Below the pieces are notes generated by a model. It was not told where the DNA came from and did no database searches. It worked only from the letters and a program-made list of their open reading frames with translations. A program made the position numbers and the translations under genes. 64,000 nt of DNA, taken from the IMG/VR virus record IMGVR_UViG_3300045988_130413. The stretch is one strand, 5' to 3'. Shown here in pieces: positions 54,553 through 55,089 of this stretch (within the stretch, counting starts at the first letter, position 1; each line of letters opens with the position of its first letter). Origin of the DNA: a virus.

Positions 54553-54601
54553 TTAGAGCGGGTAACGGGATTCGAACCCGTGACACATGCTTTCCTTCCA
54601 A
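54553..54601 (-). tRNA. 3' half of interrupted tRNA gene (Gly-UCC-like): anticodon-stem 3' strand, T-arm, acceptor 3' strand
   Basis: GGAAGGAAAGCATGTGTCACGGGTTCGAATCCCGTTACCCGCTC; acceptor strand TACCCGC pairs with GCGGGTG at 55083-55089. Confidence 0.45.
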
Positions 54602-54604
54602 TGC

Positions 54605-55027
54605 TTATAAATTTTTCAAAACCTCCTCTGCTATATAATCTCTTGAATAACAACTTCTTGGATTAGAAGGTTTATCAATCCATAAAGTTTTTTCAGCACT
54701 ACATTCAGAAACAGGAACTAAATATACTTGATTATCCCACCATGTTGCAAAGAAATCAACGTCCTCTTCTGAATAATATCGCTGTTTACATTCTCTTACA
54801 TTATTTGTTGTACTTCTACAATTAAACTTAATACTAAAACCTTGAGTATTTTCGTTTCTTCGAGAAGTTTTAACTTGCAAACGAATTAACTGATGATTTA
54901 TGTCAACAATTAAATCATATTTGCTATCTTGAGTTAATGGTTGAGATACATTGTATCCTAACGATAACAAGTAAGTTGCTACTTGTAATTCAGTAATTGT
55001 ACCTTTGTACTGTGTTGATAATTCCAT
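54605..55027 (-). CDS. Hjc-like PD-(D/E)xK nuclease encoded inside interrupted tRNA gene
   Basis: ELQVATYLLSLGYNVSQPLTQDSKYDLIVD...LIRLQVKTS matches Hjc E...GF.V.R....VDLIA...IEVK; paralogue of 60340..60762. Confidence 0.55.
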   Translation of the reverse strand: MELSTQYKGTITELQVATYLLSLGYNVSQPLTQDSKYDLIVDINHQLIRLQVKTSRRNENTQGFSIKFNCRSTTNNVRECKQRYYSEEDVDFFATWWDNQVYLVPVSECSAEKTLWIDKPSNPRSCYSRDYIAEEVLKNL

Positions 55028-55050
55028 ATATTTTTTAATTTATAAGTTCA

Positions 55051-55089
55051 GAAGGAAGGCACGTATGTTGCCAACTACACCACACCCGC
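55051..55089 (-). tRNA. 5' half of interrupted tRNA gene (acceptor, D-arm, anticodon-stem 5' strand, CUUCC)
   Basis: GCGGGTG-TG-GTGT-AGTTGGCA-ACAT-A-CGTGC-CTTCCTTC. Confidence 0.45.

Follow-up and report, generated by a model that had tools for sequence, protein, structure and literature searches.

A phage tRNA-Gly(UCC) gene in the 64,000-nt stretch of viral DNA analysed here (the window) is interrupted in its anticodon loop by an insert that encodes a homing endonuclease and is without a self-splicing RNA. Since the insert holds no ribozyme, its removal from the precursor RNA by protein is proposed; without such excision, and rejoining of the halves by an RNA ligase, the tRNA could not function. 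On comparative sequence evidence, we lean slightly towards reading it as a ribozyme-free mobile intron, which one or more protein nucleases would excise and an RNA ligase would seal. The coordinates of this gene (copy 1), of a second interrupted tRNA gene (copy 2) and of candidate processing genes are presented in Table 1.

Table 1 Features of the two interrupted tRNA genes and of candidate sealing and end-healing genes in the window.
Feature	Position	Strand	Details
Exon 1, tRNA-Gly(UCC) nt 1-36	55054..55089	-	36 nt, GCGGGTG...CGTGC CTTCC; 3' end is the anticodon UCC (loop CUUCC)
461-nt insert between nt 36 and 37	54593..55053	-	Intronless alleles; ARAGORN intron mode
Exon 2, tRNA-Gly	54557..54592	-	AA GCATG TGTC ACGGG TTCGAAT CCCGT TACCCGC T
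140-aa ORF, PD-(D/E)xK homing endonuclease	54605..55027	-	Pfam PF11645; PDB 2OST; AF2 model and Foldseek
Helix 1, 5' strand	55048..55057	-	U33-C36 and intron i1-i6 (UUCC/UUCUGA); 5' splice site inside; precursor MFE fold
Helix 1, 3' strand	54592..54601	-	Intron n-8..n (UUGGAAGGA, last three = anti-anticodon) and A37; 3' splice site inside
Helix 2, 5' strand	55037..55046	-	CUUAUAAAUU; within ORF 5' UTR; MFE fold
Helix 2, 3' strand	54604..54613	-	AAUUUAUAAG; includes ORF stop codon; MFE fold
Copy 2, interrupted tRNA-Tyr(GUA)	60295..60818	-	441-nt insert (60783-60343) between nt 34 and 35
Copy 2, second PF11645 ORF	60762-60340	-	Stop codon = U35A36A37 of exon 2; 56.6 bits
Copy 2, acceptor-like stem, 7 positions	60783-60777 with 60350-60344	-	Insert ends
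Copy 2, T-arm mimic	60367-60351	-	CCAAG-UUCAAAU-CUUGG
Copy 2, discriminator-like nt	60343	-	Single nt
Phage RNA ligase, candidate sealing enzyme	41539..42729	-	PF09414 RNA_ligase (E 1e-20) and PHA02142 OB domain
P-loop kinase-like gene (AAA_33), candidate end-healing	33619-34203	-	Family level only
Metallophosphoesterase gene (Metallophos_2), adjoins kinase, candidate end-healing	33071-33622	-	Family level only

Structure of the interrupted tRNA-Gly gene

An intron-tolerant ARAGORN search, which an earlier note on this DNA had suggested, recovered a tRNA gene with the 461-nt insert inside it (region 30% G+C). Exon 1 matched the 5' part of the uninterrupted alleles described below (L056-L061) at every base, and exon 2 supplied A37 and A38, the 3' anticodon-stem strand, the T-arm, the acceptor strand and discriminator U73, with CCA not encoded. 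Both tRNA halves had been noticed earlier and both are present, but the 5' half had been drawn 3 nt too far into the insert and the 3' half had taken in 9 bases of the insert and 4 of the trailer.

ARAGORN called the joined exons as tRNA-Gly(UCC), and they displayed all the features of a bacterial tRNA of this type: a 7-nt anticodon loop, U33, a purine at 37 and the anticodon UCC. The bases G1-C72, C2-G71, G3-C70, U73, C35 and C36, which form the E. coli GlyRS identity set, were all read in the sequence. Six IMG/VR contigs from closely related phages carried an uninterrupted tRNA-Gly with the loop CTTCCAA at the same locus, identical to the joined exons at 70-72 of 72 positions, so that the interrupted gene is no chance resemblance. 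One of these alleles (71/72) scored 63.1 bits against the Rfam tRNA model RF00005; the uninterrupted sequence reads ACGTGCCTTCCAAGCATGT. Because the related contigs have the uninterrupted gene with this loop, the junction is uniquely CTTCC/.../AA, in agreement with the glycine tRNA and the joining point (after CUUCC, before AA) first proposed for this gene. The junction placed by ARAGORN itself, CTT/...G/GAAA (a 'tRNA-Ser UGA' that would suit the group I U/G rule), is contradicted by the intronless alleles.

A mobile insert encoding an I-Ssp6803I-family endonuclease

The 140-aa ORF is a PD-(D/E)xK homing endonuclease of the I-Ssp6803I family in both fold and catalytic motif. It matched PF11645 (I-Ssp6803I / PDDEXK_5) with 79.2 bits (cut-off 26.1, E 4e-22) and PDB 2OST by phmmer (E 9.5e-9; YDLIVD...LQVKTS aligned to YDLVFD...VQVKSS), and its AF2 model (pLDDT 88.6) matched 2OST in Foldseek with TM 0.75 and E 2e-9. 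PF11645 was present in all listed homologues, and the catalytic-motif residues D38, Q51 and K53 were invariant across 51 sequences. With homologues of 60-88% identity, the ORF evolves as a protein. An earlier description of the ORF as an Hjc-like PD-(D/E)xK nuclease stands for the PD-(D/E)xK part, but the I-Ssp6803I family is the better assignment, as PF11645 and 2OST gave the best sequence and fold matches. The comparison of the ORF with Hjc, EndA and I-Ssp6803I that had been recommended ranked I-Ssp6803I first. Hjc was only the next-best fold (4TKK, TM 0.46, E 1e-3; Foldseek with the AF2 model) and gave no Pfam match at E≤1; for EndA, no Pfam tRNA_int_endo match occurred at E≤1 and it was absent from the top 50 fold matches. 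A resemblance between the I-Ssp6803I and Hjc folds has been reported (PMC3384342).

Intron-plus and intron-minus alleles of the same site occurred for Gly (L056-L061), Tyr (L052, L053 and L055) and Asn (Enterococcus phage EFP01 versus EFDG1 and phiSHEF16), and at all of these polymorphic sites the junctions were precise and without target duplication. This presence/absence polymorphism among sister phages means that the insert is mobile, and its status as a mobile element of the phage tRNA-Gly(UCC) gene is confirmed. On contig 154609 the Tyr insert was present and the Gly insert absent. The insert in EFP01, a cultured phage, is of the copy 1 type and lies in a tRNA-Asn that is unannotated. Membership of the I-Ssp6803I family makes DNA homing the established role of the ORF product, and site-specific homing by it is predicted, on the indirect evidence of same-site polymorphism in near-identical phages. 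The I-Ssp6803I target is pseudopalindromic anticodon-stem-loop DNA, which is cut across the minor groove to leave 3' overhangs (PMC2175346). No close DNA relatives were found in the GenBank phage collection beyond tRNA matches, and a scan of genome contigs matched only four MAG contigs, probably viral.

Absence of a ribozyme and of a bulge-helix-bulge motif

No Rfam ribozyme or intron family was detected in the window at the gathering threshold or at E≤10, including positions 53500-61500, and no Rfam ribozyme was detected at the gathering threshold in 20 related loci; these searches returned only tRNAs and unrelated RNAs. The ORF leaves a 26-nt 5' UTR and a 12-nt 3' UTR, a non-coding total of only 38 nt, against about 200 nt or more for a group I core (RF00028, P3-P9). 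The copy 1 exon ends in C and its intron in A, at odds with the group I U(-1)/omega-G rule. Across 44 introns of the copy 1 type, the exon could end at position 36 in U, C or G and the intron in any of A, C, G or U, always a base that pairs with nucleotide 34; because these exon-end and intron-end bases vary, the rule is absent from the whole set. Its size, its lack of an Rfam match and its splice-site bases all set the insert apart from group I introns, which bears out the earlier view that it leaves no room for a group I ribozyme core.

The only characterised relative of the endonuclease, I-Ssp6803I, is encoded by a group I intron that occupies this same position in its tRNA. This would favour a cryptic self-splicing ribozyme, which could be a small self-cleaving motif or a group I core that has degenerated and overlaps the ORF. 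We find this barely credible given the 38 non-coding nucleotides, the empty Rfam searches here and in the 20 relatives, the lack of a conserved U(-1) or omega-G, and an ORF that evolves as a protein.

Hand analysis, the precursor fold and the 44-intron alignment likewise revealed no register that places the splice sites in 3-nt bulges 4 bp apart; contrary to a bulge-helix-bulge (BHB) motif, both sites lie within a continuous helix. The likeness to archaeal and eukaryal protein-spliced tRNA introns drawn in the earlier note is therefore partial: removal would be protein-dependent and the pairing of anticodon with intron comes nearer to eukaryotic nuclear pre-tRNAs, but the archaeal BHB is missing.

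A covarying helix pairs the anticodon with the intron

The complementary flanks of the insert, proposed from the outset to extend the anticodon stem, form a 10-bp helix (helix 1: U33-A37, the anticodon UCC with the intron-terminal GGA, and i1-i6), followed by a second helix of 10 bp (helix 2). Both were reproduced in the MFE fold of the full precursor, and helix 2 displayed compensatory changes in L005 and L006. The splice sites lie on opposite strands of helix 1, staggered 3 nt toward 3'.

Conservation of this arrangement was observed across the 44 distinct introns, whose host tRNAs have 10 different anticodons. The last three intron bases were complementary to the anticodon in all 44, the anticodon/intron-end pairs including UCC/GGA, GUU/AGC, UGU/ACA, UUU/AAA, UGG/CUG, UAC/GUA, ACG/CGU and UCU/AGA. 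Positions 33:37, 34:n, 35:n-1, 36:n-2 and i1:n-3 onward were 98-100% paired. Pairs i1:n-3 to i6:n-8, which played no part in selecting the set, were canonical in 86-100% of introns except at i4, with 3-6 pair types per position. Shifted registers paired at 45-49%, and permuted 3' strands at 0.57+/-0.03 versus 0.955 observed (0/5000 permutations as high). The covariation shows what appears to be selection on the intron-anticodon helix at the RNA level. Helix 1 resembles the I-Ssp6803I DNA target in its left half only. The overhangs left by I-Ssp6803I are reportedly 3 nt long and flank the anticodon, and the splice sites in helix 1 have the positions and stagger of these DNA cuts.

Scored by pair counts (ARAGORN brackets hold canonical pairs only and are uninformative for mismatches), 66 distinct interrupted tRNAs were as well formed as 428 uninterrupted neighbours, within a set biased by ARAGORN's detection of well-formed halves only. 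Some interrupted host tRNAs were decayed (L004, L008/L009). Helix covariation and intact host tRNAs together argue, indirectly, that the inserts may be spliced.

Both lines of evidence could have another origin if the element were a selfish insertion without exon ligation, which we consider unlikely. Homing would have destroyed a dispensable tRNA gene, and the tRNA body and helix, processed by RNase P/Z, would be no more than a stable scaffold for the mRNA of the endonuclease; the helix could serve that mRNA through this tRNA-scaffold effect, not splicing, and repeated homing can renew exon integrity, with hosts such as L004 and L008/L009 in decay. The ORF truly belongs to a homing-endonuclease family, free-standing PF11645 relatives adjoin tRNA genes in many phages, and the tRNA-Asn insert was found in only 1 of 66 Schiekvirus records (EFP01), all in keeping with selfish insertion. 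The exact tracking of 10 anticodons by the intron tail is not easily explained in this way, interrupted tRNAs are without excess decay, and the persistence of ORF-less minihelix inserts (see below) in intact tRNAs, including a CUA suppressor (L116; in a set with TAG-recoded phages), is left unexplained.

Copy 2 and the mini-introns

The second interrupted tRNA mentioned in the earlier note was also found, as a tRNA-Tyr whose insert imitates part of a tRNA. Minihelices were defined by a 7-bp acceptor-like stem from G+1, an adjoining 5-bp stem with a UUCRANY loop and a 3' discriminator (+CCA), and copy 2 and at least 5 relatives possessed every one of these elements. The minihelix tail was N where host tRNAs were without CCA and NCCA where CCA was encoded. 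Cleavage sites predicted for RNase P and RNase Z fell precisely at the ends of the Tyr intron and of related ORF-less mini-introns; in copy 2 the predicted cuts are G34/G for RNase P and after A60343 for RNase Z. Mimicry of the tRNA acceptor and T-arm by the copy 2 intron leads us to predict excision by these two enzymes, whose cuts would give 3'-OH/5'-P halves joinable only by a ligase. Pseudogenisation of family 2 ORFs, considered as a sign of protein-independent splicing, was rejected: the in-frame TAGs lie at Gln positions and therefore denote TAG-recoded phages, not broken ORFs.

Copy 2 fits this model precisely, in the same phage, yet excision of copy 1 by RNase P and RNase Z is extremely improbable. 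No T-arm-like hairpin was found near the 3' end in copy 1 and its 43 relatives, and other registers pair at only 45-49%. Furthermore, the first intron base of the copy 1 type is U or C, not G, the flanking bases are paired at both sites, and the intron helix is followed by a 3-nt tail, which corresponds to neither N nor NCCA.

RNA ligase and end-healing genes

The kinase, phosphatase and RNA ligase set that had been proposed to rejoin the halves has counterparts in the window: a clear ligase, from domain matches, and candidates for the kinase and phosphoesterase, assigned at family level (Table 1). Homologous phage records annotate the ligase homologue as 'RNA ligase'. The same ligase type occurred on at least 6 other contigs with an interrupted tRNA or an endonuclease homologue, and on the 4.9-kb contig 3300031853_002095 (L122) the ligase was located about 1.3 kb from the interrupted tRNA. 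Ligase and healing genes were also present in intronless sister phages, and EFP01 had no homologue of this ligase type. Such genes are a common kit against anticodon nucleases (PMC7824862).

Proposed mechanism

As DNA, the insert, little more than a homing-endonuclease gene, would spread into the uninterrupted tRNA-Gly of co-infecting relatives. The precursor RNA would then fold as a normal cloverleaf with its anticodon stem prolonged by helix 1. As the covariation shows, this helix pairs U33 with A37 and the anticodon with the three bases that end the intron; the intron's first bases pair with those just upstream of that triplet. A nuclease would cut both helix strands with a 3-nt 3' stagger, flanking the anticodon/anti-anticodon triplet. 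The PD-(D/E)xK enzyme encoded by the intron, as a dimer or tetramer, is the leading candidate, though a weak one; a nuclease of the host, or another of the phage, is about as likely. The anticodon stem would keep the halves together until an RNA ligase sealed them. The simplest choice would be the ATP-dependent ligase of the phage, with the kinase and phosphoesterase assisting if the ends need healing. The products would be mature tRNA-Gly and a released endonuclease mRNA.

The stagger bears on the choice of nuclease. RNase III cuts with a stagger of 2 nt, and a 3-nt stagger suits B-DNA, not A-form RNA; we know of no nuclease that cuts dsRNA with a 3-nt 3' stagger. Cleavage by an RNase III or Mini-III type enzyme of the host, specific for double strands, as in 23S rRNA intervening sequences, followed by ligation is improbable in our judgement. 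About 26 bp of nearly continuous duplex are available in the precursor, and the 5'-P/3'-OH products would be directly ligatable. No RNase III is encoded in the window, so a host enzyme would be required, and its 2-nt 3' overhangs conflict with the 3-nt stagger required by the intronless-allele junctions; one cut would thus be off by one base, giving a 6- or 8-nt anticodon loop.

A 3-nt 3' stagger does suit B-DNA minor-groove cutting by this enzyme family, and removal could instead occur in DNA: the inverted repeats would form a hairpin that recreates the cleavage centre, the enzyme would cut both junctions, and DNA ligase would restore the gene in some genomes. Intron-plus and intron-minus genomes both exist, and a phage protein bears a NAD-dependent DNA ligase signature, noted by eye in its translation. 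We nevertheless rate DNA-level removal as highly improbable, since homing is a simpler account of the polymorphism, duplex DNA is unlikely to form a hairpin whose loop spans 420 nt, and the process would be suicidal for the element and give no regulated tRNA expression.

Extending the favoured reading, splicing at the RNA level, beyond this phage, we tentatively suggest that ribozyme-free tRNA introns, removed by protein or RNase P cleavage and RNA ligation, may be numerous but unannotated in tailed phages of gut and rumen bacteria. At least two types would exist. In type A (copy 1), both strands of a symmetric anticodon/anti-anticodon helix would be cut with a 3-nt 3' stagger, perhaps by the homing endonuclease that the intron encodes, for which the RNA would mimic the DNA target. 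In type B (copy 2 and the mini-introns), a minihelix would direct RNase P and RNase Z. Phage RNA ligases would act as the splicing ligases in both.

Relation to known systems and significance

The group I intron in tRNA-fMet of Synechocystis PCC 6803 is alike in its PF11645 endonuclease, its tRNA host and its anticodon-loop site beside the anticodon, which we take to be position 36/37. It resides in a cyanobacterial host, not a phage, and self-splices by a ribozyme of about 200 nt; the intron is 655 nt with a 150-aa ORF (PMC1995217), whereas the insert here is 461 nt, 38 of them non-coding, with no group I signature. Here the 5' exon end pairs with the intron 3' end, in place of the internal guide sequence of the Synechocystis intron.

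Archaeal BHB introns, cut by EndA and joined by RtcB, are likewise ribozyme-free and protein-dependent, occur in anticodon loops and need an RNA ligase, and some carry LAGLIDADG homing-endonuclease genes, as the insert here carries a homing-endonuclease ORF. They are defined by a 3-nt bulge, a 4-bp helix and a 3-nt bulge, whereas the present sites lie in a continuous helix and the searches with the ORF turned up nothing like EndA; a different nuclease family and end chemistry would also be expected (metal-dependent PD-(D/E)xK, 5'-P/3'-OH). In eukaryotic nuclear pre-tRNAs (Sen with Trl1 or RtcB), the anticodon is also paired to the intron and the anticodon stem extended, and the ligase that seals the halves works with kinase/phosphoesterase healing activities, for which comparable gene candidates occur here. 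Those introns are short and ORF-less, sit at 37/38 and are cut at single-stranded loop sites measured from the tRNA body, in contrast to duplex sites at 36/37.

In phage T4 (PrrC versus Pnkp and Rnl1), a phage kinase/phosphatase and RNA ligase, a gene set for which an RNA ligase and candidate healing genes occur here, reseal an anticodon-loop break; this is damage repair without an intron, whereas removal of an intervening sequence is proposed here. Free-standing endonucleases in phage tRNA clusters share the neighbourhood (T4 SegB; PF11645 members, of the same family, in Vibrio phages phi-pp2 and Pylo), but these genes sit between tRNAs, whereas here the tRNA itself is interrupted. The 23S rRNA intervening sequences excised by RNase III also form a long stem from inverted ends, but the rRNA pieces stay separate afterwards, and RNase III would not give the stagger seen here. 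In 'SOS splicing', DNA transposons are removed from animal mRNAs through a stem of inverted ends, with exons rejoined by RtcB (PMC12779559); that process is eukaryotic and imprecise, whereas the cuts here must be nucleotide-exact.

The general understanding is that introns of bacteria and phages splice themselves (group I or II) and that splicing of tRNAs by enzymes is a trait of archaea and eukaryotes. A full-text literature search found no description of ribozyme-free tRNA introns in bacteria or phages. A 2014 review placed all known phage introns in protein-coding genes, although phages have many tRNA genes (PMC3984707).

If the proposal is true, the bacterial world would gain its first introns spliced by enzymes and, with them, a third route of intron removal. 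If the intron's own enzyme cuts RNA, it would be the first homing endonuclease to double as a catalytic splicing endonuclease. Compact programmable helices and minihelices that direct exact excision may also be of use in RNA engineering. For the phages, splicing would mean that standard annotation misses such tRNAs, e.g. the EFP01 tRNA-Asn, and that phage RNA ligases, known until now only from repair against anticodon nucleases, gain a housekeeping role together with the end-healing enzymes. It would also provide a living model for a group I intron that loses its ribozyme and becomes protein-dependent, which has long been suggested as a step in the origin of archaeal and eukaryotic tRNA introns.

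An interrupted tRNA-Gly gene and its uninterrupted alleles

ARAGORN in default mode detected no tRNA at the locus of copy 1, the interrupted tRNA-Gly gene. With introns allowed, it returned a tRNA with a 461-nt insert there, together with a second such gene, copy 2 (tRNA-Tyr). The junction it chose for copy 1 (CTT...GAAA, 'Ser-UGA') was one of several compatible with the flanks and was ruled out by uninterrupted alleles. Searching IMG/VR with both anticodon-stem strands and a free anticodon revealed an intact tRNA-Gly at the same locus in six contigs, with the same upstream hairpin and downstream sequence; four of these were ~188-196 kb long and came from one shared metagenome. 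The intact alleles had the loop CTTCCAA and 70-72/72 identity to the joined exons, and one scored 63.1 bits against the Rfam tRNA model. These alleles settle the choice among possible junctions: tRNA-Gly(UCC) is split between nt 36 and 37 without any duplicated or ambiguous base, at the junction proposed in the earlier note. The bacterial glycine identity set comprises G1-C72, C2-G71, G3-C70, U73, C35 and C36, and the exons contain it in full.

A perfect 9-bp hairpin, AGCAAATGT-TTTAA-ACATTTGCT (55092-55125, minus strand), 8 nt upstream of tRNA-Gly, was kept in all sister contigs and could be a terminator or processing signal. The same phage locus, with the Gly intron, was also found on a 3.5-kb contig (L142, DBIX01000056.1) of the 'Cyanobacteria bacterium UBA791' MAG; this contig probably comes from a virus and was mis-binned. 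Its ORF was 99% identical to that of copy 1, and its 5' anticodon-stem strand read CATGC vs CGTGC, converting G28.U42 to A28-U42.

Features of the interrupted tRNA genes, related inserts and selected genes (window positions unless a locus number is given)
Feature	Position	Strand	Details
tRNA-Gly exon 1	55089-55054	minus	GCGGGTG / TG / GTGT-AGTTGGCA-ACAT / A / CGTGC / CTTCC
tRNA-Gly exon 2	54592-54557	minus	AA / GCATG / TGTC / ACGGG-TTCGAAT-CCCGT / TACCCGC / T
Insert between tRNA-Gly halves	55053-54593	minus	461 nt
ORF1	55027-54605	minus	140 aa; 26 nt of insert upstream, 12 nt downstream
Copy 2, tRNA-Tyr(GUA)	60295-60818	minus	interrupted at nt 34/35
Adenylosuccinate-synthetase-like gene	34746-35924	minus	PF00709, E 1e-18
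YqeY-like gene	40103-40564		
Pol-beta-type nucleotidyltransferase	45972-46793		
HD-domain gene	47255-47683		
Thg1-like 3'-5' polymerase	47992-48708		
Microbial PARG/macro gene	49347-50156		
DUF2828/DUF7788 gene	51841-53364		TROVE-like with vWA
Class V aminotransferase	57818-58906	plus	cysteine-desulfurase-like
ORF-less minihelix inserts	L024:2788-2921, L048:44-174, L091:101-236, L116:2272-2393		also in L020/L021 and L031

The insert encodes a homing-endonuclease family protein

ORF1, the reading frame within the Gly insert, matched PF11645 (PDDEXK_5; E 4e-22) and the chain 2OST (E 9.5e-9), the homing endonuclease I-Ssp6803I, with the catalytic motif YD..D...QVK aligned. An AlphaFold model built from 51 sequences (pLDDT 88.6) superposed best on 2OST (TM 0.75, E 2e-9), followed by Hjc (TM 0.46), EcoRV, the SPARDA nuclease domain and RecU; EndA was absent from the first 50 fold matches. 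The earlier description of the ORF as Hjc-like thus holds for the fold but not for the family, which is one of DNA homing endonucleases. The resemblance between the I-Ssp6803I and Hjc folds has been noted previously (PMC3384342). In a large protein collection, 347 homologues passed E<=1e-5, and none of them was named.

Related genes also stand free. Many family-2 endonuclease genes lie directly upstream of intact tRNA-Tyr(GUA), as in L016, L018, L019, L020, L031, L047 and L048 (ORF ~1483-1900), and in the Vibrio phages phi-pp2 and Pylo the immediate neighbours of PF11645 genes are tRNA-Met and tRNA-Pro. As members occur both free-standing and inside tRNAs, the family alternates between intergenic and intron-like residence. 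The family-2 ORFs of L024, L032 and L034 have in-frame TAG where homologues have Gln, which indicates that these are TAG-to-Gln recoded phages; intron-containing suppressor tRNAs of such phages would therefore be functionally important. Two further ORFs in the window (15843-16835 and 23648-24391, minus strand) showed GIY-YIG-like motifs when translations were read by eye, fused in the former to a long coiled-coil N-terminus. If this identity is true, the genome carries several kinds of homing endonuclease.

The inserts appear to be mobile: three independent intron-plus/intron-minus pairs (Gly, Tyr and EFP01 Asn) were found. Uninterrupted Tyr alleles in L052, L053 and L055 have the loop CTGTAAA. 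Enterococcus phage EFP01 (cultured and sequenced; KY549443 ~105242-105777; L001:1432-1967) has a tRNA-Asn(GUU) split at nt 36/37 by a 463-nt insert, whose ORF is 40% identical to ORF1; the split tRNA is unannotated and its PF11645 ORF is annotated 'hypothetical protein'. The same tRNA is intact and annotated in EFDG1, phiSHEF16 and ~60 other Schiekvirus genomes. Contig 154609 has the Tyr insert and an uninterrupted Gly gene, which matches the expectation for homing.

No ribozyme or archaeal-type motif accompanies the insert

The I-Ssp6803I intron is 655 nt long with a 150-aa ORF (PMC1995217), so that its group I core has ~200 nt available. The copy 1 insert has 38 non-coding nt. No intron or ribozyme family of Rfam matched at gathering threshold in the window or in 20 related loci, nor over 53500-61500 even at E<=10. 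Group I introns have U before the 5' site and G at the intron end. This rule is absent here since boundary bases vary among the 44 distinct relatives: exon 1 closes with U, C or G, and the intron with whichever base complements nt 34. The earlier view that this is not a classical group I intron is therefore upheld. A bulge-helix-bulge (BHB) motif was undrawable, both splice sites lying within a continuous helix. On these sequence features, the element appears to be no known kind of intron.

Elsewhere, L006:235-671 holds a tRNA-Leu(UAA) with a 349-nt insert at U34/A35 ending in G. The cyanobacterial group I intron classically has this position and these boundary bases, yet the L006 insert had no Rfam group I match.

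A conserved helix joins the anticodon to the intron

Searching IMG/VR with a profile built from ORF1 plus three relatives yielded 80 loci, ~60 of which had the ORF enclosed by tRNA halves. After removal of duplicates and false calls, 44 introns (445-505 nt) were analysed, spanning ten anticodons (GUU, UGU, UUU, UCC, UGG, GCU, GAU, UAC, ACG and UCU); 42 had an intact 134-151-aa ORF in the standard code. Placing the junction at 36/37 gave the pairs of the extended helix (helix 1) in 44/44. Numbering intron bases from the 5' end (i) and from the last base (n), canonical pairing was 100% for U33:A/G37, 98-100% for nt 34-36 with the last three intron bases, 100% for i1:n-3 (4 pair types), 86% for i2:n-4, 91% for i3:n-5 (6 pair types), 93% for i5:n-7 and 91% for i6:n-8; selection of the set used an anticodon/tail match of >=2/3, so that the three anticodon columns are slightly biased and the i1-i6 columns unbiased. 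Registers shifted by 1-3 nt paired at 45-49%, and shuffling 3' strands among introns gave 0.57+/-0.03 vs 0.955 observed, a value reached in 0/5000 shuffles.

Beyond helix 1 lies a small internal loop, after which the 5' UTR pairs with the stop-codon region in a second helix, with compensatory changes among the window, L005 and L006. The minimum-free-energy fold of the full 537-nt precursor contained the acceptor stem, the T-arm and both helices. Because the intron tail tracks ten anticodons and intron-intron pairs covary, the comparison shows that an RNA (or single-strand) structure, exon included, has been under selection. Excision would be the simplest purpose of such a structure.

Interrupted tRNAs are well formed

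The 66 distinct interrupted tRNAs were no less well formed than their 428 uninterrupted neighbours in mean stem pairs (20.6 vs 21.4), T-loop consensus (95% vs 89%) and U8 (95% vs 89%), a comparison that carries detection bias. A selfish endonuclease gene could instead have inactivated a dispensable tRNA, the tRNA body and extended helix then serving as a stabilising scaffold for its mRNA; we regard this as the chief rival reading, though a rather unlikely one. A maintained tRNA is not the host of every insert. Decayed hosts were seen in L004 (vs L005), where a T-loop C is replaced by T and the discriminator also differs, and in L008/L009, where the variable arm was lost and the loop changed.

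Candidate routes of excision and ligation

Copy 2 was rejected as a tRNA-Ser; it is a tRNA-Tyr(GUA) with a 441-nt insert, whose junction is fixed by the uninterrupted Tyr alleles. The stop codon TAA of its ORF coincides with U35A36A37 of exon 2. The first seven intron bases, GUCUUAA, pair with AUAAGGC, the seven bases before the last. Directly upstream, within the C-terminal codons of the ORF, CCAAG-UUCAAAU-CUUGG forms a canonical T-loop on a 5-bp stem, and the intron closes with one unpaired A. The intron ends thus read as the acceptor/T-arm 'top half' of a tRNA plus discriminator, and the 5' and 3' splice sites are predicted to be the exact RNase P and RNase Z positions, respectively. Relatives showed compensatory changes in both stems and kept G+1 in all but one. 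Introns of this type end in one unpaired base in phages whose tRNA genes lack an encoded CCA (the window, L010) and in NCCA in those that encode it (L013, L014, L024, L176, L015, L042). ORF-less inserts of 45-52 nt in the anticodon loops of tRNA-Leu(UAA) and a CUA suppressor tRNA follow the same minihelix design: the stem has 7 bp and begins with G or C, the hairpin has 4-5 bp and a 7-nt loop, and the 3' end is ACCA. The inserts at L019:972-1125 and L042:311-432 differ from it. Cleavage by either RNase P or RNase Z yields 3'-OH and 5'-P ends, and such halves would therefore be rejoinable only by an ATP-dependent RNA ligase. We infer excision by these enzymes followed by ligation, a highly specific scheme; copy 2 would independently support the view that splicing in this phage depends on a ligase.

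RNase P and RNase Z features were not found in copy 1-type introns. RNase III-type enzymes leave 2-nt overhangs, which would miss one copy 1 junction by a base. The window has no RNase III gene, but it does code for a PIN-PhoH protein, an RNase T-like exonuclease and RNase H. From the pairing scheme, the splice sites lie on opposite strands, each 3' of the anticodon or anti-anticodon triplet, a two-fold symmetric layout with a 3-nt 3' stagger. The overhangs of I-Ssp6803I, in work by Bonocora and Shub in 2001, are reportedly 3 nt and flank the anticodon. Its target is pseudopalindromic anticodon stem-loop DNA, GGGCCTTCGGGCTCATAACCCGAAGGGACG, cut across the minor groove to leave 3' overhangs (PMC2175346). 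Helix 1 is an RNA version of the left half-site and cleavage centre of such a target, with the splice sites at equivalent phosphates. Because of this match in geometry, the intron's own endonuclease, which would cut both strands of helix 1 at the splice sites, is the leading single candidate, albeit a tentative one. Against it, a 3-nt stagger is a better fit to B-DNA than to A-form RNA, helix 1 is unlike the DNA target in its right half, and we know of no precedent for dsRNA cleavage by the I-Ssp6803I family.

Whichever nuclease cuts, the tRNA-Gly halves would have to be ligated. The kinase/phosphatase/RNA-ligase set proposed in the earlier note includes a clear RNA ligase (PF09414 plus OB domain); an AAA_33 kinase and a metallophosphoesterase, adjacent to each other, are candidates for the rest. 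Close relatives of the ligase occur on at least six other contigs that have either an interrupted tRNA or a gene homologous to its endonuclease, including 3300031853_002095 (L122, 4.9 kb), where it lies ~1.3 kb from the interrupted tRNA; it is also present in intronless sister phages. Ligase and healing kits are common anti-anticodon-nuclease equipment (PMC7824862). The window also encodes a Thg1-like enzyme and a Pol-beta-type nucleotidyltransferase, which, with the PARG/macro, DUF2828/DUF7788, YqeY-like and aminotransferase genes, make up a dense group of tRNA/RNA-related genes near the tRNA cluster. Adenylosuccinate-synthetase-like genes of the kind found here are known as PurZ in phages with 2-aminoadenine DNA. 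ROOL RNA (RF03087, 265-274 bits) adjoins tRNA clusters in EFP01 (L001:2430-3016) and an IMG/VR phage (L010:537-1144), a RAGATH-33 match directly follows a tRNA (L006:685-813), and L086:1736-1823 gave a partial OLE-like match.

Relation to known introns

The Synechocystis tRNA-fMet intron shares the endonuclease family and the position beside the anticodon, but has a ribozyme where copy 1 has none. Archaeal BHB introns share the proposed protein dependence and an endonuclease ORF, eukaryotic pre-tRNAs share anticodon-intron pairing, and the T4 repair system shares the ligase kit. The suggested closeness to archaeal/eukaryal introns therefore extends to protein dependence and anticodon-intron pairing, but not to the BHB motif or the archaeal enzyme. 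All phage introns known by 2014 were in protein-coding genes (PMC3984707), and full-text searches of literature outside subscription journals turned up no account of ribozyme-free phage tRNA introns. The copy 1 element probably belongs with the I-Ssp6803I-type mobile tRNA introns, as a variant without a ribozyme. If it is indeed spliced, this would be a splicing route categorically new for bacteria and their viruses.
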